Part shown: piece by piece, positions 3,714-62,341 of the stretch
How positions within the stretch are numbered: the stretch's first letter is position 1
Layout: each line of letters starts with the position of its first letter
From: a virus
Virus record (IMG/VR): IMGVR_UViG_3300044630_003053
Span: 1-64,000 of that record
Length of the DNA: 64,000 nt
Strand: one strand, 5' to 3'
Notes under the pieces: model-generated
What the model was told of the DNA's origin: nothing
What the model saw: the letters and a program-made list of their open reading frames with translations, nothing else
Database searches by the model: none
Made by a program: the position numbers and the translations under genes

Positions 3714-4112
3714 TTGGGGTTCAGATACAAAAAATTTATTAATATGAAAAATAAAGATACAAGTCTATTAGCATTCGGGGCGATTGTTTCCCTATTTGGG
3801 GTATTTGTTTCATTAATGTATTTTAATGATAAACCCACACCAGTTGTGACAACAACAATCTGTAAGGAAGATTCATTACAAAACGTAATTAATGAATTAC
3901 AAATGGATTTGAAAATGCAATCAGATGGTTTTGATTTCAAAGAAAGAAGATATTCTGAAATTTTATTTGAATATGAATATGGGGTTGACCATTTAAAAAA
4001 TTATCAACCACAAGCATATAGAGAGTTTCATAGAATTTTATCCCATAAGGAAAATTTTAGCAGACAAGACGAACAAGATAATATTAAAAGATTAGAAACA
4101 CCAAAATGGTAA
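3714..4112 (+). CDS. hypothetical protein with N-terminal TM segment
   Basis: ORF; overlapping ORFs 3554-3742 and 3701-3940 less likely. Confidence 0.4.
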   Translation: MGFRYKKFINMKNKDTSLLAFGAIVSLFGVFVSLMYFNDKPTPVVTTTICKEDSLQNVINELQMDLKMQSDGFDFKERRYSEILFEYEYGVDHLKNYQPQAYREFHRILSHKENFSRQDEQDNIKRLETPKW

Positions 4113-5257
4113 ACATGAATAGATTAGATAAAAGATATCAAGATTTATTACAAGATATTTTAGATAATGGAGTCGTAAAAACGGACAGAACTGGTACAGG
4201 TACAATATCGGTATTTGGTAGACAAATTAAACATAAGATGTCACAAGGGTTTCCATTACTTACCACAAAGAAAATTGCGTGGAAAACAATGGTAACCGAG
4301 TTGTTATGGTTTCTACGAGGGGATACCAATATCAAATACCTTGTCGATAATGGTTGTAACATTTGGAATGGTGATGCATTTAAGAACTACACTAAAAAAA
4401 TTAATGATGTTATTGATGGATATAAGTGTGGTGACATAATGGGGATGCAACCACACATGGAAGTGTGGTTTAGTGATTCTGATAAATTAACACCATTAAC
4501 TCAAGAAGAGTTTATTGACAAAATAAAAACGAATGATGAGTTTGCTGAACGATGGGGTGAGTTAGGACCAATATATGGTAAACAATGGAGAAGTTGGTTA
4601 AAAGTGGGTGAAGAGGTTGATCAAATTCAAAACCTAATTGATGAACTTAAAACAAATCCAGATAGTAGAAGACTAATGGTGTCCGCATGGAATGTCGGTG
4701 AGTTAAACCATATGATTCTTCCCCCTTGTCATTACGGGTTTCAAGTTTATACCAGAGAATTAACCGGTGAAGAAAGATGGGACTTACTGAAGAAGAAGGT
4801 AGGTGAAGAAAGATTTCAATTAATGGTAGAAGATATTGTTCCATTTGGTGGTGGATTAAGTGAGGAGTTACAAGTATATAATATCCCTAAACGAGCAATA
4901 TCATTAATGTGGAATCAAAGATCTGTGGATACATTCTTAGGATTACCATTCAACATCGCATCATATGGTTTGTTATTGGAAATTTTTGCTAGAGAAGTGA
5001 ACATGATTCCAGAAGATTTGATTGGTAATTTGGGAGATGTACACTTATATAAAAATCACATCGAACAAGCTAAGGAACAAATTAATAGAGAACCATATAG
5101 GAATCTACCTAAATTGGGATTCAGTCCAATACCATTGGCACACTTTGAACATCATGTGGATAGTTTTAATGATTTTGTAAATCGTTTACAACCACACCAA
5201 TTCATTATTGACGAGTACGAAAGTCATCCACCAATAAAAGCCCCATTAAGTAATTAA
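4106..5257 (+). CDS. thyA: thymidylate synthase (ThyA family) with two large insertions
   Basis: DRTGTGT, LLWFL.GDTN, GPIYGKQWR, SAWNVGEL, PPCH, LGLPFNIASYGLL motifs; 383 aa versus about 264 canonical. Confidence 0.9.
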   Translation: MVNMNRLDKRYQDLLQDILDNGVVKTDRTGTGTISVFGRQIKHKMSQGFPLLTTKKIAWKTMVTELLWFLRGDTNIKYLVDNGCNIWNGDAFKNYTKKINDVIDGYKCGDIMGMQPHMEVWFSDSDKLTPLTQEEFIDKIKTNDEFAERWGELGPIYGKQWRSWLKVGEEVDQIQNLIDELKTNPDSRRLMVSAWNVGELNHMILPPCHYGFQVYTRELTGEERWDLLKKKVGEERFQLMVEDIVPFGGGLSEELQVYNIPKRAISLMWNQRSVDTFLGLPFNIASYGLLLEIFAREVNMIPEDLIGNLGDVHLYKNHIEQAKEQINREPYRNLPKLGFSPIPLAHFEHHVDSFNDFVNRLQPHQFIIDEYESHPPIKAPLSN

Positions 5258-9602: not shown

Positions 9603-10577
9603 ATGAAATATTTCTCAGTATGTAGTGGAATCGAGGCCGCAACAGTGGCTTGGTCCCCATTGAATTGGAAATGTGAAGGGTTATGTGACTTCGCATCTTT
9701 CCCACAAAAAGTATTATCACATCACTATCCAACAACCCCATTATTTTCAGACTTAACAAAATTAAACGAACATGAAAGTTACAGAAACATCAGCTTCGAC
9801 CTATTGGTCGGAGGAACGCCTTGTCAATCTTTTTCCGATGCAGGACTCAACAAAGGAATGGATGATGTCCGTGGTCAACTCTCCCTTGAGTATGGAAGAA
9901 TTCTTAAAGAAAAACGACCAAGATGGTTCATTTGGGAAAATGTCGAAGGCGTTTTTAAAAGCAAACACAGAAAAGCGTTATGTGAAATCATCTCCTCTTT
10001 CACAGGTACTAACTTCAAAGCAGAAGACCTCGACAAACAAGGTGTTGTCCAAGGAGAAGAATACTCCATCGCTTATAGGGTTTTCGACAGCCAATACTTC
10101 GGAGTTCCCCAACGACGCAAAAGAATCTTCATTGTTGGATATCGTGGAAACAATTGGAAAGTCCCATTCTCCGTATTATTTGAAGAAGGATGTTTTGAAA
10201 GCGTTAAAGAGAAGAATCGAATCAAGAGGGATGAGTACGCCAGAAATGTTCTTGGAGAAATTAAACTCGCAGGTACAGTAACAAAATCACACGCATCTAC
10301 ATTGGTTGATGGGTTTGGTAAAGTATCTACGTCTAACTATTGGATTGATAACAATAGTATTAGAATCTTCACAGAAAGAGAATTAGAGAGACTCCAAGGG
10401 TTTCCCGATGGTTATCTTGATTTTGAAATTGGTGGTAAAAAACCAAGTTATTCAAATGTTAAAGGTGCAATAGGTAACTCTATGACTGTCAATGTAATGT
10501 ATTGGATTGGTCAACGAATTAATTTTATTGACAATTATATTCAATCTAAAAATATTTTGAAATCCGAGAAAATTTAA
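9603..10577 (+). CDS. C5-cytosine DNA methyltransferase
   Basis: GGTPCQSFSDAG (IV), ENVEG (VI), QRRKRIFIVG (VIII), GNSMTVNV (X). Confidence 0.85.
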   Translation: MKYFSVCSGIEAATVAWSPLNWKCEGLCDFASFPQKVLSHHYPTTPLFSDLTKLNEHESYRNISFDLLVGGTPCQSFSDAGLNKGMDDVRGQLSLEYGRILKEKRPRWFIWENVEGVFKSKHRKALCEIISSFTGTNFKAEDLDKQGVVQGEEYSIAYRVFDSQYFGVPQRRKRIFIVGYRGNNWKVPFSVLFEEGCFESVKEKNRIKRDEYARNVLGEIKLAGTVTKSHASTLVDGFGKVSTSNYWIDNNSIRIFTERELERLQGFPDGYLDFEIGGKKPSYSNVKGAIGNSMTVNVMYWIGQRINFIDNYIQSKNILKSEKI

Positions 10578-13462: not shown

Positions 13463-13744
13463 ATGCCAGAATTTACATCAGAAGTAGACATCGACCCAAG
13501 TGAATTTATTGAGTCTTGTAGTAAGAAAGAAAAAGACAGATTAGTTGAAATCCTTATTGAGGATGGATACATTCAATCAGACCAAGAAACTAAGAGTACT
13601 AACAATGGTGTCCGTAGACCGAACATTAATGACCAAACATTTTGGGAAAGTTTAGAACGTCTTGCAAAGTGTAGGCATTTATTATCCATCGAAGAAGAGA
13701 ACTTCATCAATAACCTATCTAACAAGTTCAAATACATACGTTAA
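13463..13744 (+). CDS. hypothetical protein
   Basis: ORF. Confidence 0.4.
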   Translation: MPEFTSEVDIDPSEFIESCSKKEKDRLVEILIEDGYIQSDQETKSTNNGVRRPNINDQTFWESLERLAKCRHLLSIEEENFINNLSNKFKYIR

Positions 13745-14358
13745 TGAAAGTACTTGAGTTATTTGCGGGTAGTCGTTCAGTAGGAAAGATTGCAGAAGAA
13801 TTAGGAATGGAAGTATTTTCATCTGATTTAATTGAATTTGAGGGTATTCATTACCCAATTAGTATATTAGATTTTGATGTATCTAAAGTTCCGTTTCAAC
13901 CCGATGTAATTTGGGCATCTCCACCATGTACTGGTTTCAGTGTTGCAGCAATCGGTCACCACTGGTCAGGAGGTAAAGGTGCTTATATACCTAAAACAGA
14001 AACCGCAAAGTTGGGTATTGAATTAGTTAGAAAGACATTAGAAATTATTAATCACTTCCAACCAACATATTGGTTTATGGAAAACCCACGAGGTGTTCTT
14101 CGTAAGTTAGATGTTGTTAAAGGATTGAAAAAGAATTCTGTAACTTATTGCCAATATGGTGACGAGAGAATGAAACCAACTGACATATGGACTAACAGTG
14201 ATGTGTGGACTCCAAAACCAATGTGTAAGAATGGTGACCCATGTCACGTTGCCGCACCAAGAGGTAGTAGAACAGGAACACAAGGTCGAGCCAACGCTTA
14301 CGAAAGAAGTAAGATACCGGCAGATTTATGTTTAGAAATATTAAAAAGTTGTTTATGA
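13744..14358 (+). CDS. short C5-methyltransferase-like protein (204 aa)
   Basis: LELFAGSRSVG (motif I-like), PPCTGFS (PC motif), ENPRG (ENV-like); lacks TRD and motifs IX/X, so DNA-MTase activity is uncertain. Confidence 0.5.
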   Translation: MKVLELFAGSRSVGKIAEELGMEVFSSDLIEFEGIHYPISILDFDVSKVPFQPDVIWASPPCTGFSVAAIGHHWSGGKGAYIPKTETAKLGIELVRKTLEIINHFQPTYWFMENPRGVLRKLDVVKGLKKNSVTYCQYGDERMKPTDIWTNSDVWTPKPMCKNGDPCHVAAPRGSRTGTQGRANAYERSKIPADLCLEILKSCL

Positions 14359-21435: not shown

Positions 21436-22089
21436 ATGATTAAGATAGAAAATAATAGAAAGGTTTGGATAACATCCGATACACATTATAACCACACAAA
21501 CATATGTCGTGGTGTAACTAAATGGAGAATGTTAGATGGTTCTGTACCTGAAGCACAAACTAGGGATTTCATGAATTTAGATAAAATGAATTCGGCAATT
21601 GTAAATAACATAAATGAGTTTGTTGGTCAAGACGATGTGCTGATTCATTTGGGTGATTGGTCGTTTGGTGGGTTTGAACAAATAGAAGAGTTTCGTAATA
21701 GAATTATCTGTAAAGAGATTCATTTAACTTTTGGTAATCATGACCACCATATTGAAAGGAACCGTGAGGATTGCCAAAGACATTTTGCATCATCACAATG
21801 GTTCCTACAATTAAATTATTTGGGTGAGACGCTTGAGTTGATGCACTATCCAATTGCTTCGTGGAATGGACTGAATAAGGGACGTATTCATCTTCATGGA
21901 CATTGTCACCTACCTAACAATAAAAAGTTCGGTAATGGTCGTAGAATGGACGTTGGTATGGATGGGAATCTTGACTTTGCACCATATAATTTAAGAGACA
22001 TAGTTAACTCAATGAAGAATAGACCAGTTGGTTCTGAACTTGGGGTTGATGATCATCACATTGATGAATTAAAAAATGTTGACCGATAA
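21436..22089 (+). CDS. calcineurin-like metallophosphoesterase
   Basis: ITSDTHYNH, GDWSFGG, GNHDHH, HGHCH motifs. Confidence 0.75.
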   Translation: MIKIENNRKVWITSDTHYNHTNICRGVTKWRMLDGSVPEAQTRDFMNLDKMNSAIVNNINEFVGQDDVLIHLGDWSFGGFEQIEEFRNRIICKEIHLTFGNHDHHIERNREDCQRHFASSQWFLQLNYLGETLELMHYPIASWNGLNKGRIHLHGHCHLPNNKKFGNGRRMDVGMDGNLDFAPYNLRDIVNSMKNRPVGSELGVDDHHIDELKNVDR

Positions 22090-30967: not shown

Positions 30968-31303
30968 ATGGTTAAATCGTTTAAATTTTTTGTTGGTAAT
31001 GAAGAGGACGAAGATTATCCAATCGAAGATATGGATATCGAAACCTTAGATGATGATAGTCCTTCTTGGTCATGGACATGTATGTTACCATTAGATGGTT
31101 ACACATACGATATTGTCGAAACCCAAAGCAATGGGATACATGAATTCTTAAGTAGATTCCCAAACAGATTTTGTGTTCCTGTGTTATCGATAACCGGACC
31201 AAACGGAAGATTTCATGATACTAACACACAATATGATGATGGTTGGGGATTTGATATCACATCCGATTTACTTACAATAAGATTTTTAAGATTTGAATCT
31301 TAG
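30968..31303 (+). CDS. FKFF-motif family protein
   Basis: N-terminal MVKSFKFFVGN, shared with 32500, 32862, 33293 and 33514. Confidence 0.45.
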   Translation: MVKSFKFFVGNEEDEDYPIEDMDIETLDDDSPSWSWTCMLPLDGYTYDIVETQSNGIHEFLSRFPNRFCVPVLSITGPNGRFHDTNTQYDDGWGFDITSDLLTIRFLRFES

Positions 31304-31325
31304 TTTCTTAAAAATAATAGTAATA

Positions 31326-31359
31326 TTTTTGGATATTCAAAATATAATTCGTATATTTG
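31326..31359 (+). promoter_or_regulatory. Bacteroidetes-type promoter
   Basis: TTTTTGGATATTC ... TATATTTG ending 4 nt before ATG 31364 (leaderless-like). Confidence 0.5.
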
Positions 31360-31363
31360 TGGT

Positions 31364-31789
31364 ATGAATACATCAATATTGACCTTTTTATTATCAATGT
31401 CACCATTGGTTATAAAAACTGCAGAAGCTCCAAGTAGATTTAATTATCCGATAAAGATAACTAAATCAATTAGTTATGAGACAGTTACCCTTACAACCTA
31501 TTCTGCAAGCGTAGGAGAAACTGACTCAACTCCTCACATAACAGCATCGGGATTTAAGATTGATACTGCTAATCCAAAAAAACACAGAATCATTGCGGTT
31601 TCAAGGGATTTAAAAAAGAAATGGCCGTTTGGTACTAAGGTTAGAATTAAAAGTGCGGGAAAATATAACGGAGTTTATACCGTTAAAGATGTAATGAACA
31701 AAAGGTATAAGAATAGAGTAGATATATTAATTGGTGAGGATGATAGACAAACCACCATGAACAACGTAAGAATTACTAAAATTAAATAA
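31364..31789 (+). CDS. 3D-domain (MltA/YocH-like) secreted protein
   Basis: signal peptide; TAYS..GETDSTPHITASG...D motifs. Confidence 0.55.
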   Translation: MNTSILTFLLSMSPLVIKTAEAPSRFNYPIKITKSISYETVTLTTYSASVGETDSTPHITASGFKIDTANPKKHRIIAVSRDLKKKWPFGTKVRIKSAGKYNGVYTVKDVMNKRYKNRVDILIGEDDRQTTMNNVRITKIK

Positions 31790-31790
31790 A

Positions 31791-32237
31791 ATGACTCCTG
31801 ATTTCACAGTTAGACCATCCCAATTAATAAACATTCTTTGGGTATTTATTGGTGGATTTGCAGTATCTGCCGCAGTATCAACAGAATTTTATTGGATTGC
31901 ACTTGTTGCACTAATACCAATCTATAAGATTTTAGATTATGCATGTTGGACCTACGATATCTATGACGACCGTATTGTAGAAAGTCGTGGTGTATTTTCT
32001 GTTACCACAAGAGAAGTGTATTTCCATAGAATTAAATCTGTAATGATGGAAAGACCTTTTTGGATGAGAATTCTTGGTGTTGGTAGTGTTATGGTTAGAA
32101 GTTCTGACCAATTCACCAGTTACTTTGTAATCTATGGTATCGATGACGTTGAGGAATTTGAAGAAGATTTTCAAGATGTTATTCAAGATAAAAGAAAGGA
32201 AAATGGAATGAAAGAACATGAAATATTTCAAATGTAA
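31791..32237 (+). CDS. membrane protein with bacterial PH (bPH_2/YdbT-like) domain
   Basis: two TM helices then YDIYDDRIV...FHRIKSV pattern. Confidence 0.45.
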   Translation: MTPDFTVRPSQLINILWVFIGGFAVSAAVSTEFYWIALVALIPIYKILDYACWTYDIYDDRIVESRGVFSVTTREVYFHRIKSVMMERPFWMRILGVGSVMVRSSDQFTSYFVIYGIDDVEEFEEDFQDVIQDKRKENGMKEHEIFQM

Positions 32238-32499
32238 AATATAAAACAATTAATATGACATCAAAATTTTTTGGTTCACCAAAACCAAACCAAGTGAAGA
32301 AAGGAGATAAAAAAACTCCAACCACACAACCTAAACCAGTGAAGACCACTCAGATTAAAAAAAATAATAGAGGTAAATAATATGAACAAGTTAATAATTA
32401 AATTTAAAAAAATCCTACAAGAAATCTTGTTGGGGTTTAAAATTGCTGAAGAGAATAAACATAAATCCCAATGGGGTAAGTTTTAAATTAAAAAAATGT

Positions 32500-32862
32500 A
32501 TGAGAGAATTCAAATTTTTCAGAGGGTACGTTGATAACCAATCGATAGGAATTAATTGGGATGAAATCAATAGAATAAATGAAATAAATAGATTACCAAC
32601 TTGGAGTGGTACTAACTACCAACCAACATGGATTACTAATCCGGGTTATATTGTTCCACAACCATATACTATAACAACAACACCGGGTACTGGCACATAT
32701 ACGATTCCATTCAGTGGAACAATTAGTGGTTCATCAACGGGTTTTAGTTTAACAACATCAAATCCAAACGGAATAACTTATACTACGGGTGGTATGGGTG
32801 GAACTTTTACAACGACAGGTACAGTATCTACAAATACATTTTATACTTCAAATATTAAGTAA
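32500..32862 (+). CDS. FKFF-motif family protein with Thr/Gly-rich C-terminus
   Basis: ATG 32500 gives MREFKFFRGYV; the ORF-track start 32443 is a TTG codon. Confidence 0.45.
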   Translation: MREFKFFRGYVDNQSIGINWDEINRINEINRLPTWSGTNYQPTWITNPGYIVPQPYTITTTPGTGTYTIPFSGTISGSSTGFSLTTSNPNGITYTTGGMGGTFTTTGTVSTNTFYTSNIK

Positions 32863-33299
32863 TGACTAAGTTCGTTTTTTTCAGGGGTTATGTTGGAACA
32901 TTAAATGTAATGGATGGAGAAACTTATGCCACCGCATCACTCAATGACGATACTCCCGAAGGTCATATGAATAGAAGAATGTTATATCACACAAATCATA
33001 ATCTTCTTGATAATGTTAGAAGGGAAATACCAAGAGGTCGGTTTGGCACGCCCGAGAGACACCAAGATATCCTAAGAAGACTACAAATGACTAACGATTT
33101 AAGAGATCTAAATGATAACCCTATAAGATTATTCCAAACAACATCAGTAACAACAGTTAACCCGAAGTGGTGGATGAAGATAAAGATGTTTTTTCAAGAG
33201 GCTAATTTTAATGGTGAAATCTTAGGTATTATTTTTATTGCTGGTTCATTAACTATTGGTGTAATTCTCGGAATTGCTAAATTATTAAATGCATGGTAA
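32862..33299 (+). CDS. FKFF-motif family protein with C-terminal TM
   Basis: MTKFVFFRGYV. Confidence 0.45.
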   Translation: MTKFVFFRGYVGTLNVMDGETYATASLNDDTPEGHMNRRMLYHTNHNLLDNVRREIPRGRFGTPERHQDILRRLQMTNDLRDLNDNPIRLFQTTSVTTVNPKWWMKIKMFFQEANFNGEILGIIFIAGSLTIGVILGIAKLLNAW

Positions 33300-33517
33300 G
33301 CGAGTTTAAGTTCTTTCAAAAGAACAAATATAAAGATAGATGTCGATTACAGATTGGTTCCTCATTTATTTTACGTGGATATTATTGTACCGTAACAAGA
33401 ATGTTTGCAAACCATTTTGAATATTGGGTACAAGAAACGGAATTTACCATTGCTATGAGTTATAAAGATTATCTAGCCACACCATCGGCTGCAGGTAGAC
33501 AATTAAATAGTATATGA
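33293..33517 (+). CDS. FKFF-motif family small protein
   Basis: MVSEFKFFQKN. Confidence 0.4.
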   Translation: MVSEFKFFQKNKYKDRCRLQIGSSFILRGYYCTVTRMFANHFEYWVQETEFTIAMSYKDYLATPSAAGRQLNSI

Positions 33518-34008
33518 TAAAACCTTTTAAACTACTTAAAGGATACACATACAGTGATGAGTATACATTACCAACACAACAAAATCCACCATTCAATTTA
33601 TCACATCGTCATTGGAATTTGTTACCTCAAGATTTGAGAGGTGCGACATTACAAGAAATGGAATGTTATATTCGTGGATGGGAAGATGCTCGTAGTAATG
33701 TTACGGTAAATCCATATATTGATAGAATAAGACGTAGTTTGTGGAATAGGGGGTTTCTAAGGTGGAGGGGTAGAGTAGGAATGAATTATCGTAATGTAAA
33801 TCCTAACCTACCAATAGACGAAAGTTACCCTGAATATTATAACACAGATGATTTTGTTTTCTCTGATGTGTCCTCAATTATGTTTGACCCAATTAGTTCT
33901 CAACCATACAAACATATGATGTTTAGACATATTGAGGATGGAGATACGGTAGAAGGTAATAGAATATTTCCCGACCACCCAATGTGGAACTTCCTTGATA
34001 TAATATAA
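33514..34008 (+). CDS. FKFF-like family protein
   Basis: MIKPFKLLKGYTY. Confidence 0.4.
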   Translation: MIKPFKLLKGYTYSDEYTLPTQQNPPFNLSHRHWNLLPQDLRGATLQEMECYIRGWEDARSNVTVNPYIDRIRRSLWNRGFLRWRGRVGMNYRNVNPNLPIDESYPEYYNTDDFVFSDVSSIMFDPISSQPYKHMMFRHIEDGDTVEGNRIFPDHPMWNFLDII

Positions 34009-34066
34009 ATGACAAAGTCGGAAGTAAAAACGTGACAATCTCGGAAGTAAAAACGTGACAATCTCG
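34003..34066. repeat. 23-nt tandem direct repeat, about 2.8 copies (CGTGACAATCTCGGAAGTAAAAA)
   Basis: read directly; upstream of the envelope-modification cluster. Confidence 0.8.
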
Positions 34067-34089
34067 GAAGTTAAGGATAATTATTATTT

Positions 34090-34278
34090 ATGAGAGAAAG
34101 AATTATAGGACCTTATTTGGTTCAACAACAAATTGTATTAGATCCAGAGGGAGAAGTCATTTTTTATAAAATTGACTCACCATTATTTAATGGGGTAAAA
34201 TTAACGGTTATGTCTGAAAGTGATTTAACTGAGGAAGTAATTGAACAACACTTACGGGTTCTGAATATAATGGTTTGA
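34090..34278 (+). CDS. hypothetical small protein
   Basis: ORF. Confidence 0.3.
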   Translation: MRERIIGPYLVQQQIVLDPEGEVIFYKIDSPLFNGVKLTVMSESDLTEEVIEQHLRVLNIMV

Positions 34279-34309
34279 TAATCAAAGTTATGGTTCTAAA
34301 GAACTATTT

Positions 34310-34999
34310 ATGAGGATGAAAATACAAGCATTATTTATCTCAGATGTTCATCTGGGTTCAAAAGGTTCCAACGCAAATGAGGTCCTAAACATTCTCAAAC
34401 AATACCAACCCGAATATCTATTCTTAGTTGGGGATATAATTGACGGATGGTTACTGAAAAGGAAGTTCCGTTGGCCCCAATCACATACCAATGTGTTAAG
34501 AAAGATATTATCACATTCAAAGAATGGGACAAAGGTAATATACATACCGGGGAATCATGATGAATTTCTAAGGGAATATGGTGAATTCTCTTTTGGAAAC
34601 GTGGAGATTCATAATGAGTATGTATGGAAGAATACCTTTATTACTCATGGTGATTTATATGATGGTGTGGTTAAATTGAAATGGTTGGGTATTCTTGGGT
34701 CGGTTGGATATGACGCAGCAATATCCATTGATAGATTTTTAAAGAAGTTGGGGATGAAGAGATCACTATCCAAGTTTTTAAAGAATAAGGTTAAGGAGGC
34801 GGTAAAGTTTATCACACAATATGAGGTGGAGTTAACCAGACAAGCCAAGAAACATCGATGCACAACCGTGATATCTGGACACATTCACCATCCTGAGGAT
34901 AGAATGATTGATGGTATAAGATACATGAACTGCGGGGATTGGATTGAAAACAATAGTTATATAATATACAACAACGATGAATATACGGTCATTAAGTAA
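34310..34999 (+). CDS. LpxH-like metallophosphoesterase
   Basis: FISDVHLG, LVGDIIDGW, GNHDEF, GHIHH motifs (UDP-2,3-diacylglucosamine hydrolase family architecture). Confidence 0.65.
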   Translation: MRMKIQALFISDVHLGSKGSNANEVLNILKQYQPEYLFLVGDIIDGWLLKRKFRWPQSHTNVLRKILSHSKNGTKVIYIPGNHDEFLREYGEFSFGNVEIHNEYVWKNTFITHGDLYDGVVKLKWLGILGSVGYDAAISIDRFLKKLGMKRSLSKFLKNKVKEAVKFITQYEVELTRQAKKHRCTTVISGHIHHPEDRMIDGIRYMNCGDWIENNSYIIYNNDEYTVIK

Positions 35000-35693
35000 G
35001 AGGTTAACAATAGTCATTCCATCCAAGAATGAGGGGATAGTATTATATAACTGCATTCAATACATATCAAGACAGAACCATATCGATGGGGTAAGAGTAA
35101 TCATTGCAGATGTATCGGATGATAATGACTCCATAATATGGATTAAGAAAGCACAATTAGAGTTCAAACACTTATTAAAGATTACGGTAATCAAGGGAGG
35201 ATATCCGGCAGAAGGAAGATTAAATGGAAGTATGTTGGTAACGACTCCGTATATGTTATTCTTGGATGCGGACATCTTATTAACCAATCCAAAGATTATT
35301 GAGGAGTGTTTATCTCATAAGAAGGATTTGGTAACGGTACTGTTCCATACGGACAAACCCTACAGATGGGTATTCAGGGTATTTGATATGTTTCAATCTC
35401 TATCTACTTTAATCGGTTCACCATTCGCCGTGGGAGGATTCCAACTATGGAAGACGGAATCCTATTGGGAAGTTGGGGGATATAACCCACAAGAACTATT
35501 CGCCGAGGATTATTCAATATCACAGAAGGTAAAATCAAAAAACTTTAAGGTGGTAAACATAGAAGGAACATATACGTCATCCAGAAGATTTAAATCTAAA
35601 GGGGTATTATGGATGTTCAAGATAATGATTAAGAGTTACATAAACAGAAAGAACCCAGAGTTCTTCAGACATCATCACAACTACTGGAATTAA
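34977..35693 (+). CDS. family-2 glycosyltransferase
   Basis: TIVIPSKNEG ... FLDAD (DxD) GT-A features. Confidence 0.6.
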   Translation: MNIRSLSKRLTIVIPSKNEGIVLYNCIQYISRQNHIDGVRVIIADVSDDNDSIIWIKKAQLEFKHLLKITVIKGGYPAEGRLNGSMLVTTPYMLFLDADILLTNPKIIEECLSHKKDLVTVLFHTDKPYRWVFRVFDMFQSLSTLIGSPFAVGGFQLWKTESYWEVGGYNPQELFAEDYSISQKVKSKNFKVVNIEGTYTSSRRFKSKGVLWMFKIMIKSYINRKNPEFFRHHHNYWN

Positions 35694-35799
35694 TATGGGA
35701 ACAATATTTCCTGTCATGATATCATTTACAATTGTAATAGGATTGACTATTATTGTAATGATAATCGACCACATCACAAAAAAGAGATAAAAAAATTAT

Positions 35800-36486
35800 A
35801 TGAAAATTCTAATAATTGCAAAGGGGAGATGTGGTTCACATTCATTAATAGATTGGTTAGGTGAGGAATTTAACTTAAAAACCATTTACGAAAATGAAAA
35901 TAAGGACACTTCGGTGGTCGATGACTATATTATTAAAAGACACCCATCATCTATTAAAGGAGATTTATCATCAGATTTTATCACCGATGGATACGATTAC
36001 GTAATAAGGTTAATTAGGGAAAATACAATACTAACCGCTGAGAGTAATGTGTGGGCAGAAGAAAAACAAAAATATCACCCGAAGGGTAAGGAAAAATATA
36101 TTATAGATGAAGCCTTTTTGAGAAAACACCATAGAGAAATTTGGAGTAAAAAAATAGGTTATGATGAATCCAACGACGTAATAAGGAATATAGGTGTTGG
36201 TATATTAGTTACATATGAAGAATTATTTTTATATGGGACAGGTCAGGAAAAGATAGAGAAGTATATGGGTTTTAAATCTACTTCAAAATTAAATACTGAC
36301 CTCAAGAAAAGTAGATTTCACATAATGGATAAAACAGTATATACCACATATGATTTAGCATATAATAAAACCACTATCTTAGAAGAAATTATTAAACAAA
36401 AAGATTTAGTTATCGATAATTTAAACGAAAAGATTAAAAATTTAAACGAAACAATTGTAGATTTGGTATCATCAAAAAATAGATAA
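35800..36486 (+). CDS. sulfotransferase-like protein
   Basis: N-terminal IIAKGRCGSHSL resembles a PAPS-binding P-loop. Confidence 0.35.
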   Translation: MKILIIAKGRCGSHSLIDWLGEEFNLKTIYENENKDTSVVDDYIIKRHPSSIKGDLSSDFITDGYDYVIRLIRENTILTAESNVWAEEKQKYHPKGKEKYIIDEAFLRKHHREIWSKKIGYDESNDVIRNIGVGILVTYEELFLYGTGQEKIEKYMGFKSTSKLNTDLKKSRFHIMDKTVYTTYDLAYNKTTILEEIIKQKDLVIDNLNEKIKNLNETIVDLVSSKNR

Positions 36487-36809
36487 TGATTAAAAGAAAG
36501 AAACCCTTTGCAAAGATTGTAAAGGAATGGAATGAGGCATCCACCATGGAAGTATGGGAAGGAGTAAGGGATAACTTTATATTTGGATTCCTTGGTGCAA
36601 CCATTGTGGTATTCATCGCAACTAGAGCCGACCTCATGGTATTATTTGGATATCTGATATACTATTTCTTCATGGGGAGGATTGTCAATAGACCAAAATA
36701 CGTCACGGACTTAGGTAAACTCATAGTGTTCCCCATCCCATCAGCACTTGGTGCATTCGCAGGATATAAGTTCTCGTACATTCTACAAGAGTTAACCCAA
36801 CGTATATGA
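36486..36809 (+). CDS. membrane protein
   Basis: 3 TM helices. Confidence 0.4.
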   Translation: MIKRKKPFAKIVKEWNEASTMEVWEGVRDNFIFGFLGATIVVFIATRADLMVLFGYLIYYFFMGRIVNRPKYVTDLGKLIVFPIPSALGAFAGYKFSYILQELTQRI

Positions 36810-37387
36810 AGATATGTATAATATCATCCATAGGTAGATCTGGAACAACCTCACTATTTGATATGATGAGTTTATGTCTACCAAGATACTACACATGTTT
36901 AAATGAACCATTCGGTCGATTTCAAAGAGGGCATGAGATGAATCTTATTGAAAACGCCCCCAATGTTCTTGTAAAGGAGTTATTAAATAATACGGTTAAC
37001 CATAAGGTTTTCCCATATGATTGGGTGTATCAGACCTTTGATAAGGTTATTGTGATGGATAGAAGAAATAAGTGGGAACAGGCGGAGAGTCACGCAGCAC
37101 ATTCATATAAAGGGGATAACTTTAAAAGTTGGCACAATAGAAGGGAATACGACTTAACAAACATACCCACGGAGTATATTAAGGCATTAGCAGACCAATC
37201 GGAGGATTTAATGCAATATCATAGGGGTAAGATTTACTATTACGAGGATGTGTTTATGGAACATAACTTGGATTTGTTAATGGAGATTATGAATTCTGTG
37301 GGGATAACAGAAATACCCAATCAAATACTAAAGGATTATTTCTATAGTCCCAAGAAGAAGGTAAGAATAGTAAAGACCCTAATTTAA
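36806..37387 (+). CDS. sulfotransferase-family protein
   Basis: IISSIGRSGTTSL (5'-PSB motif-like). Confidence 0.45.
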   Translation: MKICIISSIGRSGTTSLFDMMSLCLPRYYTCLNEPFGRFQRGHEMNLIENAPNVLVKELLNNTVNHKVFPYDWVYQTFDKVIVMDRRNKWEQAESHAAHSYKGDNFKSWHNRREYDLTNIPTEYIKALADQSEDLMQYHRGKIYYYEDVFMEHNLDLLMEIMNSVGITEIPNQILKDYFYSPKKKVRIVKTLI

Positions 37388-37744: not shown

Positions 37745-37985
37745 GTTTGGAATTGTAATAAAGATATCTTATCTTTGTAAAAGAAATTAGTTCATTGACA
37801 TTATTGGAAATATTATTTCATCTTCTTAATAGAAGATGGTGCCAGTTGTTTGGCACATAGTGAATTCTGAATAAACAGAATGTGGATTTATCCGTGGAGA
37901 TTAATTTCTCACTCACTCAATACCTTTTATTTTTTAAAAATATTGTTCACAACTCATTGTAACATAGAAGGTTGTATATGGATAG

Positions 37986-38270
37986 GTTGTGAATACCATT
38001 ACTTTGAAAGGTTTATACAACAGAGTGACTGTCTAAATGACTACGACCCGGTTGTGAATACCCCTACTTTAAAAGGTATATACAACCGGTATAGCTCTCA
38101 TGTCATTAATGATTTGGTTGTGAATACCATTACTTTGAAAGGTTTATACAACAAACGATTGAAAGGTATATACAACCACCACATAAATGAAGATATATAC
38201 AACATCCCATTCCATACTTTACATATTAAGGTATAAACAACGAATTGGTTATTAAAAGGTAATATACAAC
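37986..38270 (+). CRISPR. mini CRISPR-like array: 3 full 36-nt repeats (37986-38021, 38051-38086, 38117-38152), spacers of 29 and 30 nt, then 4 degenerate repeat 3'-fragments
   Basis: GTTGTGAATACCATTACTTTGAAAGGTTTATACAAC (x2) and GTTGTGAATACCCCTACTTTAAAAGGTATATACAAC; repeat termini GTTGT/ACAAC are inverted; decaying copies all end in TATACAAC/TAAACAAC. Confidence 0.7.
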
Positions 38271-38324: not shown

Positions 38325-39692
38325 ATGTCCATTAAAACAAGGAAGATTAAATTGATTGCGGTTGGTGAAACTGCAAAGGATAGAACAAAGGTCTACAACT
38401 ACATTAAGAAGGTTGCAGATGATTTGACCCAAGTGGGAAATGAGGTTATAAGACTTCATGTGTGCAATCAATATGAAATTGACAGGTTAAAGGGTACAAA
38501 TAATATTTCCAAGGGTGATGCAATTAAGATACTACAAGATTCACTTGGTACATCCATAAGGAATTCGGGGTATCAACTACTAACAAAATTCCCATATATA
38601 TCTTCTCAAGTAAGGACATGTTTCAATTCTGTTATATATAAGACCATAAGTGATAACTTCTATGATATCCTTAAAGGGAAAGTATCCATTCCATCATTTA
38701 GAAAATCTAATCTATCCATTCCATTTTCAGCCAATAATGATAAAGAAACTGGTATAACGAACGCAATATACGCCGAGGGAGATAGATACTACATACAATT
38801 CCCATTATCGGGGGAAGAAAGAAAGATACATAAAAAAGTTGAATTATCCTTATTCTTCGGAAAAGATAGAAGTAATAATAGAATTATTGTAGATAGAATA
38901 CTCAATAGTGAATATAAACTATGTGATAGTAACTTCAAAATAGAAGATAATGATTTATATCTATTGATTACCTATAAACAACCAGATAGTATTAAACCCG
39001 AAATGGATGTTAATAAGGTAATGGGTATAGACTTAGGTATTAATAGACCCGTATCCATTTATATTTCCAATGAAAAACATCAACCACGACAGATTAATAT
39101 AGGATTAAAGATACAACATGAAAGGATGAAATTCTATAAACATAGAAAATCCCTACAGGAATCTTTAAAGTATTCTAAAGGTGGTCACGGTAGAAATAGA
39201 AAGTTGAAGTCTTTGGAAGATTTAAGAGATAAGGAAAAGAATTGGAGTCAATTAATAAATCATACTATCTCTCGAGAAGTTATCAGGATTGCTAACGAGT
39301 ATAATGTTGGTGTTATCCATATGGAAGATTTAACAGGAATAACAACTAACTCTAAGGATTACTTCATGAAGAGTTGGGCATACTACCAACTACAAACTTA
39401 TATAGTATATAAAGCAAAAGAACTTGGGATAACCATATTATGGGTAGACCCTAAGAATACTTCTAATACCTGTCCCACTTGTAAGGTTTCTGAACCATTG
39501 AATAGAAACGATAAAGATAAAACAAAATTCAGATGTATTAATTTGAATTGTAAGGACTTTGATATGGATAGAGATGCTGATATTGTAGGAGCATTTAATA
39601 TAACACATACCTTAGGATTAGATGTAAAGTCTAATAGTAAAGAAGGTAGAATGAAAAAAGGTAAGGAGAAAAAATTTATGGAACAAGTATAA
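38325..39692 (+). CDS. TnpB/Cas12f-like RNA-guided nuclease candidate (compact RuvC nuclease, 455 aa)
   Basis: RuvC-I MGIDLGINRPV, RuvC-II VIHMEDL, zinc finger CPTC...FRC..C, RuvC-III DMDRDADIVGAFNI; all catalytic acidic residues present. Confidence 0.8.
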   Translation: MSIKTRKIKLIAVGETAKDRTKVYNYIKKVADDLTQVGNEVIRLHVCNQYEIDRLKGTNNISKGDAIKILQDSLGTSIRNSGYQLLTKFPYISSQVRTCFNSVIYKTISDNFYDILKGKVSIPSFRKSNLSIPFSANNDKETGITNAIYAEGDRYYIQFPLSGEERKIHKKVELSLFFGKDRSNNRIIVDRILNSEYKLCDSNFKIEDNDLYLLITYKQPDSIKPEMDVNKVMGIDLGINRPVSIYISNEKHQPRQINIGLKIQHERMKFYKHRKSLQESLKYSKGGHGRNRKLKSLEDLRDKEKNWSQLINHTISREVIRIANEYNVGVIHMEDLTGITTNSKDYFMKSWAYYQLQTYIVYKAKELGITILWVDPKNTSNTCPTCKVSEPLNRNDKDKTKFRCINLNCKDFDMDRDADIVGAFNITHTLGLDVKSNSKEGRMKKGKEKKFMEQV

Positions 39693-61609: not shown

Positions 61610-62341
61610 ATGACAAAAGACGAAGTAATCTATAACGTACAATTAAGTGACGTTGTATATAAAGACCAAAAAGATATTGACTTCAAATCACTTGGATTAA
61701 CTTCCGTTAAGTGGATTGATGATAAGAAATCAGATACCCAAGGATTTGTTGCCATGAAAGGGAAGTCACTCTATGTGGTCTTCAGAGGAACGTCATCCAA
61801 GAAGGATGCTCAGAATGATGTATCCATCGACAAGGTTCCCTTCATCAATGAGGGTGATAAAGTACATGTTGGATTTAAGTCCTCTTGGGATGCCGTTAAG
61901 AACACCATCCTCAAAGACATCACCAAGATGAGTGGGTATAATAAGATTGTTGTATGTGGTCATAGTCTTGGAGCTGCAGTTGCTACTCTATGTGCTTATA
62001 ATCTTTCCCACGTATTTGAGGATACCACCATTGAATGTTGTACCATAGGAAGTCCAAGGGTCGGTAATAAGACCTTTAAGAACAACTATGACAGTCGTAA
62101 GATTAAAACCCTCAGAATCGTCCATAATAACGACCTGGTGACACGTTCTCCCAACATAGGGTACTATCACGTCAATCACATGTTACGAATCGACCACGAG
62201 GGTAATATTAAGAAATTTATGATTGATTGGGAACGTGCTTGGAATTTCCTTAAATCTATGGTTACCGGAAAGAACATTAAGGACCATATGACCGCTGGTT
62301 ATATGAGTTCATTAAAGAAGTGGTACGATAAACAACCATAA
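61610..62341 (+). CDS. class-3 lipase family protein
   Basis: VVFRGTSS ... CGHSLGAAVATLCAY (GHSLG nucleophile elbow). Confidence 0.75.
   Translation: MTKDEVIYNVQLSDVVYKDQKDIDFKSLGLTSVKWIDDKKSDTQGFVAMKGKSLYVVFRGTSSKKDAQNDVSIDKVPFINEGDKVHVGFKSSWDAVKNTILKDITKMSGYNKIVVCGHSLGAAVATLCAYNLSHVFEDTTIECCTIGSPRVGNKTFKNNYDSRKIKTLRIVHNNDLVTRSPNIGYYHVNHMLRIDHEGNIKKFMIDWERAWNFLKSMVTGKNIKDHMTAGYMSSLKKWYDKQP

Follow-up and report, generated by a model that had tools for sequence, protein, structure and literature searches.

At positions 34003-37387 of a 64,000-nt stretch of the IMG/VR record IMGVR_UViG_3300044630_003053 (the entire stretch is referred to here as the window), a gene block is found whose core consists of a metallophosphoesterase and a family 2 glycosyltransferase (GT2), and the function of this pair is probably lipid renovation, with sulfation as a possible, optional addition. 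The phosphoesterase (34310-34999, + strand; 229 aa), which scores 54.8 bits against the Pfam Metallophos model (cut-off 21.5), is assigned with high confidence, on the basis of its sequence, to the PlcP family, and its predicted activity is that of a putative phospholipase C. The sequence-only reading of the window had taken it for an LpxH-like enzyme within a cluster modifying the envelope or the lipopolysaccharide (LPS), an interpretation that the comparisons presented below largely refute.

The PlcP assignment is readily apparent from the alignment with bacterial proteins. Over about 97% of its length, the phage protein is 41% identical to the protein of the Pseudomonas aeruginosa PA3219 locus (E 2e-66) and 44% identical to a Sinorhizobium meliloti homologue (E 3e-66). 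The first match was placed by its surroundings, since a family-1 glycosyltransferase and then an adenylate cyclase lie 3' of the gene, as in the PA3219-PA3218 locus; the second adjoins LuxR and acyl-homoserine-lactone synthase genes and, to judge from this sinR/sinI neighbourhood, is presumably SMc00171. The PA3219-PA3218 arrangement makes glycolipids, as demonstrated by experiment (Jones et al. 2021), and the PlcPs characterised experimentally share 46-51% identity among themselves (published values, including Jones et al. 2021). In contrast, the LpxH proteins of Escherichia coli and P. aeruginosa are only 20-23% identical to the phage protein, and in a neighbour-joining (NJ) tree every phage copy falls within the PlcP clade, with LpxH as the outgroup, the position that LpxH also occupies in published PlcP trees. 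The profile check for LpxH was equally negative, both curated equivalog models being missed by far (NF003743, 44.6 bits vs a cut-off of 134; TIGR01854, 36.5 vs 190.35).

The residues of the active site lead in the same direction. According to Okada et al. (2016), all known LpxH enzymes uniquely carry an arginine in place of the second histidine of the GNH(D/E) motif; the E. coli and P. aeruginosa enzymes accordingly read GNRD, whereas histidine occupies this position in the phage phosphoesterase and in 52 of 52 non-redundant homologues (those of phages Mosig and S-SRM01 and 50 others, taken from viral metagenome contigs). The metal-ligand motifs DxH, GD, GNHD, H and GHxH are all present, residues D12, H14, D42, N82, H83, H113, H191 and H193 being invariant among the phage homologues, and the same ligands are found in bacterial PlcPs, together with the GNHDEFLR motif. 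Furthermore, the helical insertion at approximately residues 117-176 aligns throughout with the PA3219 and S. meliloti proteins. The phage enzyme differs from its bacterial counterparts in length, with 229 aa as compared to 270-281 aa.

It follows from these differences that the rival explanation, according to which an LpxH-type pyrophosphatase acts together with the GT2 and the sulfotransferases to remodel lipid A, LPS or capsule (in the manner of lysogenic conversion or superinfection exclusion), is highly improbable. The features that speak for it are a shared architecture, LpxH also being a metallophosphoesterase of this subfamily with a helical insertion domain, the best sequence match to a solved structure, which is P. 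aeruginosa LpxH (E 3e-5), and the naming of viral homologues, which annotation pipelines call LpxH and virome papers list under LPS biosynthesis. Against it stand the identities, the missed cut-offs and the histidine. RefSeq applies the label "UDP-2,3-diacylglucosamine diphosphatase" to the protein of the characterised P. aeruginosa PlcP locus as well, which accounts for the misleading LpxH label; moreover, no further gene for lipid A or the LPS core is seen in the block. Consequently, the phage genes that virome studies have tallied as "lpxH", under LPS, probably serve lipid remodelling.

The genomic surroundings of the bacterial homologues, scanned in one genome per prokaryotic species, are consistent with the PlcP assignment. 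Full-length homologues with 40-46% identity occur in Pelagibacteraceae, Bradyrhizobium, Pseudomonas, Limnohabitans and others, and 76 of the loci of the 80 closest homologues extend far enough to hold a downstream gene; at 43 to about 52 of these, an agt-like GT4 gene lies directly 3' on the same strand. Other neighbours of bacterial plcP encode a polyphosphate kinase, a PstS-like binding protein, a histidine kinase, a diacylglycerol kinase, a patatin and an OlsB-like acyltransferase. The bacterial plcP-agt arrangement serves lipid remodelling under phosphate stress (Sebastian et al. 2016; Jones et al. 2021). On the viral side, the phosphoesterase has about 8000 homologous protein clusters, with an identity of 82% or more throughout the best 120, and at least 581 IMG/VR stretches encode a relative. 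A particularly informative copy is that of Pelagibacter phage Mosig (L007 in our numbering of related loci; MT647606.1, 94129-94866), which is 50% identical to a Pelagibacteraceae PlcP and adjoins it in the NJ tree. This gene, annotated as a putative UDP-2,3-diacylglucosamine hydrolase, lies next to a phosphate ABC transporter gene and to 2-oxoglutarate (2OG)-Fe(II) oxygenase genes, and it is likely a host-derived plcP under a wrong name.

Regarding the partner enzyme, the GT2 gene (34977-35693, + strand; 238 aa) overlaps the end of the phosphoesterase gene by 23 nt. Its designation as a GT2 glycosyltransferase, already made from the letters alone, is well founded: the protein exceeds the PF00535 (Glycos_transf_2) cut-off with 32.6 vs 23.3 bits, all 17 of the diverse family members examined match the same model (best E 1.8e-25), and the DxD motif (D97, D99) is invariant across the family. 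The family profile matches many solved GT2 enzymes, down to E 1e-26, the closest being polysaccharide and teichoic-acid enzymes. Ten of the 17 members also match the model of GT21 weakly, the family to which Pgt and, reportedly, the non-Agt synthase of Devers 2011 belong. The occurrence of bacterial plcP beside non-Agt glycolipid synthases too is noted in the literature (Sebastian et al. 2016, citing Devers 2011). The phage GT2 is small and soluble, with no predicted transmembrane (TM) segment, and among the isolated phages and plasmids searched no close homologue was found, only distant relatives.

The association between the two genes is strongly conserved. Across 80 viral loci with a phosphoesterase homologue at 52-97% identity, the GT2 adjoins the phosphoesterase in 73, being located downstream in 68, usually with an overlap, and upstream in 5; of the seven loci with no adjacent GT2, two end at a contig edge. 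The sequences thus suggest that the pair echoes the bacterial plcP-agt operon, with a glycosyltransferase of a different fold. Taking into account the conservation of the pairing, the GT2 would take the role of Agt and glycosylate the diacylglycerol released by the phosphoesterase, its presumed acceptor.

By analogy with bacterial PlcP-Agt, the following sequence of events is proposed. The PlcP-like enzyme, translationally coupled to the GT2, would cut the phospho-head groups off the phospholipids of the host membrane, leaving diacylglycerol, and the freed phosphorus-containing head groups may be channelled into nucleotides for a very large phage genome. The GT2 would then glycosylate the diacylglycerol to a phosphorus-free glycolipid, so that the membrane could hold until lysis. 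Several observations weigh against this proposal: the phage partner is a GT2 rather than the bacterial GT4 Agt, no GT2 relative lies beside any of the 80 bacterial plcP genes, and the copies known from isolated phages, in Mosig and S-SRM01, have no adjacent GT2.

The second of these points, together with the small, soluble nature of the GT2 and its kinship with polysaccharide and teichoic-acid enzymes, is compatible with a different role, in which the pair acts on a non-lipid target (glycosylation of a virion protein or of phage DNA, or turnover of nucleotide sugars) and the PlcP homology reflects ancestry only. Sugar aminotransferase and acetyltransferase genes beside the GT2 in some relatives could be read in the same sense, as could, in this phage, the presence of several DNA methylases and of a thymidylate-synthase-like gene that has acquired a large insertion. 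Such a role is nevertheless considered rather unlikely, as the PlcP conservation continues through the substrate-binding helical insertion, a phosphoesterase gene paired with a glycosyltransferase gene is the hallmark of plcP loci, and the Mosig copy occurs in a phosphate-acquisition context. Lipid renovation by the phosphoesterase-GT2 pair remains the probable function.

Two further genes of the phage lie outside the block. A class-3 lipase (61610-62341, + strand; PF01764, E 8e-31) represents a second lipid-active gene, and a second, unrelated Metallophos protein is encoded at 21436-22089 (+ strand).

The remainder of the block behaves differently from the core pair. The earlier description of one co-directional block is accurate insofar as all genes lie on the + strand, which says little, because essentially all genes between 1 and about 40 kb do so; the block is not one conserved unit, only the phosphoesterase-GT2 pair being core and the sulfotransferase-like genes being accessory. 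The latter adjoin the pair in only about 7 contexts; elsewhere they are missing or stand 2-6 kb from it, on one side or the other. If all those up to 6 kb from the pair are counted, about 11 of 48 contexts contain them. The 5 kb 3' of the GT2 are highly variable, with 333 open reading frames (ORFs) from 48 contexts distributed over 182 gene clusters. In two relatives (L017, 10586-11876; L035, 5115-5972) the island encodes, next to the GT2, a DegT/DnrJ/EryC1 sugar aminotransferase, whose gene may be split, and a hexapeptide acetyltransferase, as well as a beta-keto acid cleavage enzyme (BKACE), while the island of other relatives holds an RNase T-like exonuclease, an RNA ligase or a thymidylate synthase (ThyA). 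This variable island may provide optional tailoring of the lipid head group (by sulfation in the present phage, and by acetylation or the making of amino sugars in L017 and L035), or else it may carry unrelated cargo or serve an unrelated target.

In the present phage, the island carries a run of three overlapping genes. The first (35800-36486, + strand) encodes a divergent sulfotransferase-fold candidate of 228 aa with a C-terminal coiled coil; it overlaps by 1 nt the gene of a small membrane protein of 107 aa (36486-36809, + strand), which in turn overlaps by 4 nt the gene of a second candidate of 193 aa (36806-37387, + strand). Direct searches of all three proteins against Pfam, NCBIfam, PHROG and PDB sequences returned no meaningful match. 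The proposal of two P-loop sulfotransferase-like proteins, as it was originally made, is probably right, but only at the level of the family: profile searches with the two proteins themselves come back empty, the outcome under which the proposal was to be given up, and its support derives from the family profile and from the APS kinase context described below. Taken together, the motifs and remote relatives make it likely, at the level of sequence, that both proteins adopt the fold of sulfotransferases dependent on 3'-phosphoadenosine 5'-phosphosulfate (PAPS), with a predicted sulfotransferase activity and a presumed glycolipid or other substrate.

The 193-aa protein carries a GRSGTTS loop resembling the 5'-phosphosulfate-binding loop, an R86..S95 motif resembling the 3'-phosphate-binding motif, and YYEDVF; in the 228-aa protein the corresponding elements are a GRCGSHS loop, an R..ES motif and YEELF. 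Only 16 and 29 close relatives were found for the 193-aa and the 228-aa protein, respectively. An exhaustive profile search extended the 193-aa family by 121 remote representatives, every one of them a small protein, and the alignment of 69 remote relatives gives the consensus MKIxI..PRSGSTSL..EPF..K..FDKVIxLxRK....Q.ES..WH..YYEDLF, with R11, P35, R86, S95 and E147 invariant and G13 invariant or nearly so. This consensus reproduces the order in which bacterial sulfotransferases carry their motifs, the 5'-phosphosulfate loop coming first, followed by the 3'-phosphate motif and by YEDL in the C-terminal part. The top three PDB matches of the family profile are the CurM sulfotransferase (E 0.0037), NodH (0.012) and the OLS sulfotransferase (0.046), aligned exactly at the loop, at R....ES and at YEDL, and sharing with the family an N-terminal strand-loop-helix with (P/G)RSG(S/T)T. 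Among the 69 relatives there are also 10 weak Pfam matches (in at most 10 members) to Sulfotransfer_1, _3, _4 or Stf0, the best with E 1e-4. The two window proteins are barely similar when compared directly, and hhalign of their two shallow families gives a probability of 31%; the 228-aa family aligned with the extended 193-aa family yields 97.6% (E 3e-12, 137 columns), which indicates that the two are distant paralogues. With respect to Stf0, NodH, CurM-ST and Sulfotransfer_3, the window proteins are shorter (about 190-230 aa vs 250-320) and lack a significant Pfam model, and one paralogue departs further with its GRCGSHS loop and its variable coiled coil. The length of this coiled coil differs among relatives through gain or loss of NLNEKIKNLNETI-like repeats.

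The gene context of the remote relatives is also informative. A kinase for adenosine 5'-phosphosulfate (APS) is encoded 0.3-4.3 kb away in 3 of 4 independent contexts (L009, L010/L011 and L012), a setting compatible with PAPS-dependent sulfotransferases. The islands in question, located on large phage-like contigs (L009, L010/L011, L012, L013), contain a short APS kinase of 141-145 aa and several small sulfotransferase-like genes, together with 2OG-Fe(II) oxygenases, Trp-halogenase-like genes, a carbamoyltransferase, a radical S-adenosylmethionine enzyme, an AMP-binding enzyme and GT4s; their make-up suggests viral genes for tailoring or biosynthesis that bring along a PAPS supply of their own. 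A Metallophos gene near the remote relative in L013 was considered as a PlcP and rejected, as it is not PlcP-like.

The sulfotransferase assignment is weakened, in turn, by its dependence on modest E-values (0.004-0.05) combined with motif agreement, and by the absence of an APS kinase from the 64-kb window, where one was searched for. Evidence from the fold is weak because both AlphaFold2 models, built from shallow alignments, are poor, with mean predicted local distance difference test (pLDDT) scores of 52.6 for the 193-aa protein and 41.9 for the 228-aa protein, the latter unusable; the top Foldseek match of the weak 193-aa model, Stf0 (E 0.027), is suggestive only. Furthermore, the remote relatives occur with no PlcP nearby, which weakens the pathway link to the core pair.

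These uncertainties leave considerable room, short of an even chance, for the view that the GRxGxxS proteins and the membrane protein are unrelated island cargo (for anti-defence, exclusion or host interaction) and perhaps not sulfotransferases. Their few close relatives, as compared to some 8000 for the phosphoesterase, fit such cargo, as do the shifting position of the genes (upstream, between repeats and phosphoesterase, downstream, or 2.3 kb off), the extreme variability of the island, the PlcP-free islands of the remote relatives and the failure of direct profile searches. This is countered by the family-wide retention of three sulfotransferase motifs and the exclusive sulfotransferase identity of the top three PDB profile matches aligned on them, by the APS kinase in the remote contexts, by the recurrence of these genes within 6 kb of the pair, and by the sugar-tailoring enzymes that other relatives carry there. 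A sulfotransferase fold therefore continues to be favoured; that the two proteins act on the product of the GT2, in a pathway shared with the core pair, appears unlikely. Still less is to be expected of the complete three-step route, from phospholipid to diacylglycerol, to glycosyl-diacylglycerol and finally to a sulfated anionic glycolipid with the membrane protein as helper, which is regarded as improbable. If it were true, it would free membrane phosphorus for a genome of 200-335 kb, while the sulfolipid would replace anionic phospholipids in a way unlike the synthesis of sulfoquinovosyl diacylglycerol, and a regulator, belonging either to the phosphate-stress response of the host or to the phage, would turn the operon on by way of the 23-nt repeats described below.

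The small membrane protein had been recognised correctly from the letters: two hydrophobic segments at about residues 27-58 lie above the cut-off, and hydropathy indicates at least two TM segments. Its homologues are found near the pair in about 20 related loci, where their position varies; in L021 and L043 the homologue is the next gene after the GT2.

Upstream of these genes, the tandem 23-nt direct repeat, for which about 2.8 copies had been claimed, is borne out by Tandem Repeats Finder, which reports a period of 23, 2.7 copies, 94% matches and a score of 110 at 34010-34071 (+ strand). The repeat unit is TGACAANNTCGGAAGTAAAANNG, with an invariant core 8-mer TCGGAAGT. The longer core CAANNTCGGAAGT occurs as 2-3 perfect copies in about 15 related phage loci, some with extra degenerate copies, and among 27 distinct repeat copies all 21 neighbour spacings are exactly 23 nt; this recurrence with exact spacing shows that the repeat is not a product of chance. 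It is the sole such site in the 64-kb window, where the core has no second full match. Its usual place is 45-80 nt 5' of the phosphoesterase start codon, or 5' of genes inserted before the phosphoesterase, which may be the 62-aa ORF, an extra sulfotransferase paralogue or another small gene, and a TATAAT-like A/T-rich box usually follows 1-10 nt 3' of the array. The repeat is thus a conserved, clade-specific cis element that marks the head of the operon.

A constant 8-mer repeated at a fixed period between flanks that vary is what an array of protein-binding sites at the start of an operon could look like, and the repeats are most likely a putative array of binding sites for a transcription regulator. 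Not every locus conforms to this picture. A GC-rich, terminator-like hairpin, rather than a gene start, lies 3' of the repeat in L024/L095, L037 and L029, and the repeat is unlike the published Pho box CTGTCATNNNNCTGTCAT (Jones et al. 2021), a consensus that may not be that of the host; both points weigh against a regulatory site of this kind. The repeat is found on the other strand, several kb away, in L021, L024/L095 and L037. A Pho-box identity of the repeat was considered and finds no support, given the dissimilarity to that consensus and the absence of the repeat motif from the 80 bacterial plcP loci. In L006 the repeat heads a sulfotransferase-only unit, which raised the idea that it travels with the sulfotransferase genes; this was dropped because in most relatives it stands directly 5' of the phosphoesterase with no sulfotransferase gene.

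Iterons typically have a period of about 22-23 nt, and the repeats might accordingly be something other than a regulator site, namely replication iterons, a packaging signal, tandem mini-ORFs or a duplication by chance or slippage; explanations of this type are, together, somewhat unlikely. The units in the window can be read as mini-ORFs with overlapping start and stop, ATG/GTG ACA A(A/T)(G/C) TCG GAA GTA AAA ACG TGA, and in some relatives the array adjoins a hairpin between convergent genes. The mini-ORF reading was rejected, as the frame is not conserved: it is lost in relatives such as L001 and L006 while TCGGAAGT and the exact 23-nt period are retained, which also excludes an origin by chance or slippage. 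As to the other options, there are only 2-4 copies at a single site per locus, and in most relatives these copies precede the phosphoesterase start by the short distance given above, followed by the TATAAT-like box. A putative regulator-binding array accordingly remains the preferred interpretation of the repeat.

Seven + strand ORFs follow the repeat. The nearest (34090-34278, + strand; 62 aa) has no family match in Pfam, NCBIfam or PHROG, and its relatives are few (L001/L002 and L045, with weak ones in L023 and L043). Directly 5' of the repeat (30968-34008, + strand), five successive small ORFs share an F-K-F-F-x-G-Y-like N-terminus (MVKSFKFFVGN, MREFKFFRGYV, MTKFVFFRGYV, MVSEFKFFQKN and MIKPFKLLKGY) and look like a tandem array of paralogues. 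Just past the island, a TnpB/Cas12f-like ORF (38325-39692, + strand) with a PF07282 TNB domain and PF01385 OrfB_IS605 is preceded by a 66-nt tandem repeat (37985-38153; 2.6 copies, 76% matches), which an ORF at 37880-38236 overlaps. A mobile insertion is suggested here, because the element is missing in the relative L001 and ORFs of different size occupy the same spot in L015 and L045.

At the larger scale, the window has a GC content of about 33% and the character of a large phage-like genome. Up to about 40 kb its genes lie almost without exception on the + strand, and at about 40 kb gene orientation and GC skew both switch, with the + strand before and the - strand after, which marks the border between two convergent gene blocks. 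The gene content includes thymidylate synthase, DNA methylases, an SPFH protein and a PcfJ-like protein, and close relatives of the window genes are encoded on metagenomic contigs of 199 to 335 kb. The thymidylate synthase homologue (4106-5257, + strand) contains an insertion of about 115 aa relative to the Pfam model and, together with three DNA methylase genes (675-1388, 9603-10577 and 13744-14358, all + strand), hints at DNA modification. Rfam and tRNA scans of the 64-kb window gave zero matches, as did a DNA search of the region against isolated phages.

Among known systems, the closest is bacterial PlcP-Agt, as represented by S. meliloti SMc00171, Phaeobacter MED193, Pelagibacter HTCC7211 PlcP/Agt and P. 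aeruginosa PA3219/PA3218. The phage operon resembles it in the glycosyltransferase gene directly downstream and, through Mosig, in the phosphate-acquisition context; it differs in being phage-encoded, in pairing the phosphoesterase with a 238-aa GT2 of GT-A fold instead of a GT4 Agt of about 350 aa, and in carrying a 23-nt repeat array 5' with no recognisable Pho box. What appears to be new is the combination of a phage PlcP, a non-orthologous GT2, a clade-specific repeat and, in this lineage, sulfotransferase-like genes, the bacterial pathway being already known. No description of a phage-encoded PlcP was found in the literature searched, although an earlier one is possible.

Phosphate-stress auxiliary genes such as pstS, phoA and phoH are known in cyanophages and pelagiphages, an example for aquatic phages reportedly being the work of Zeng and Chisholm of 2012. 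The phage plcP resembles them as a host-derived phosphorus-economy gene of abundant aquatic phages, and differs in that it would target membrane lipids rather than phosphate uptake. Large uncultured phages of a very abundant clade, with contigs of up to 335 kb, have the phosphoesterase among their core genes. Two by-products of the analysis are of use beyond the core pair: the small sulfotransferase-like proteins of phages are now defined as a large family with links to APS kinase, and the sharply conserved 23-nt repeat could open a way to the study of regulation in an uncultured phage group. If the pair does consist of a PlcP and a glycolipid synthase, these phages would remodel the membranes of their hosts to mine phosphorus, and a new class of phosphorus-economy auxiliary gene would stand beside pstS, phoA and phoH, with a bearing on nutrient cycling in phosphorus-poor waters and on the differences between infected and uninfected cells.

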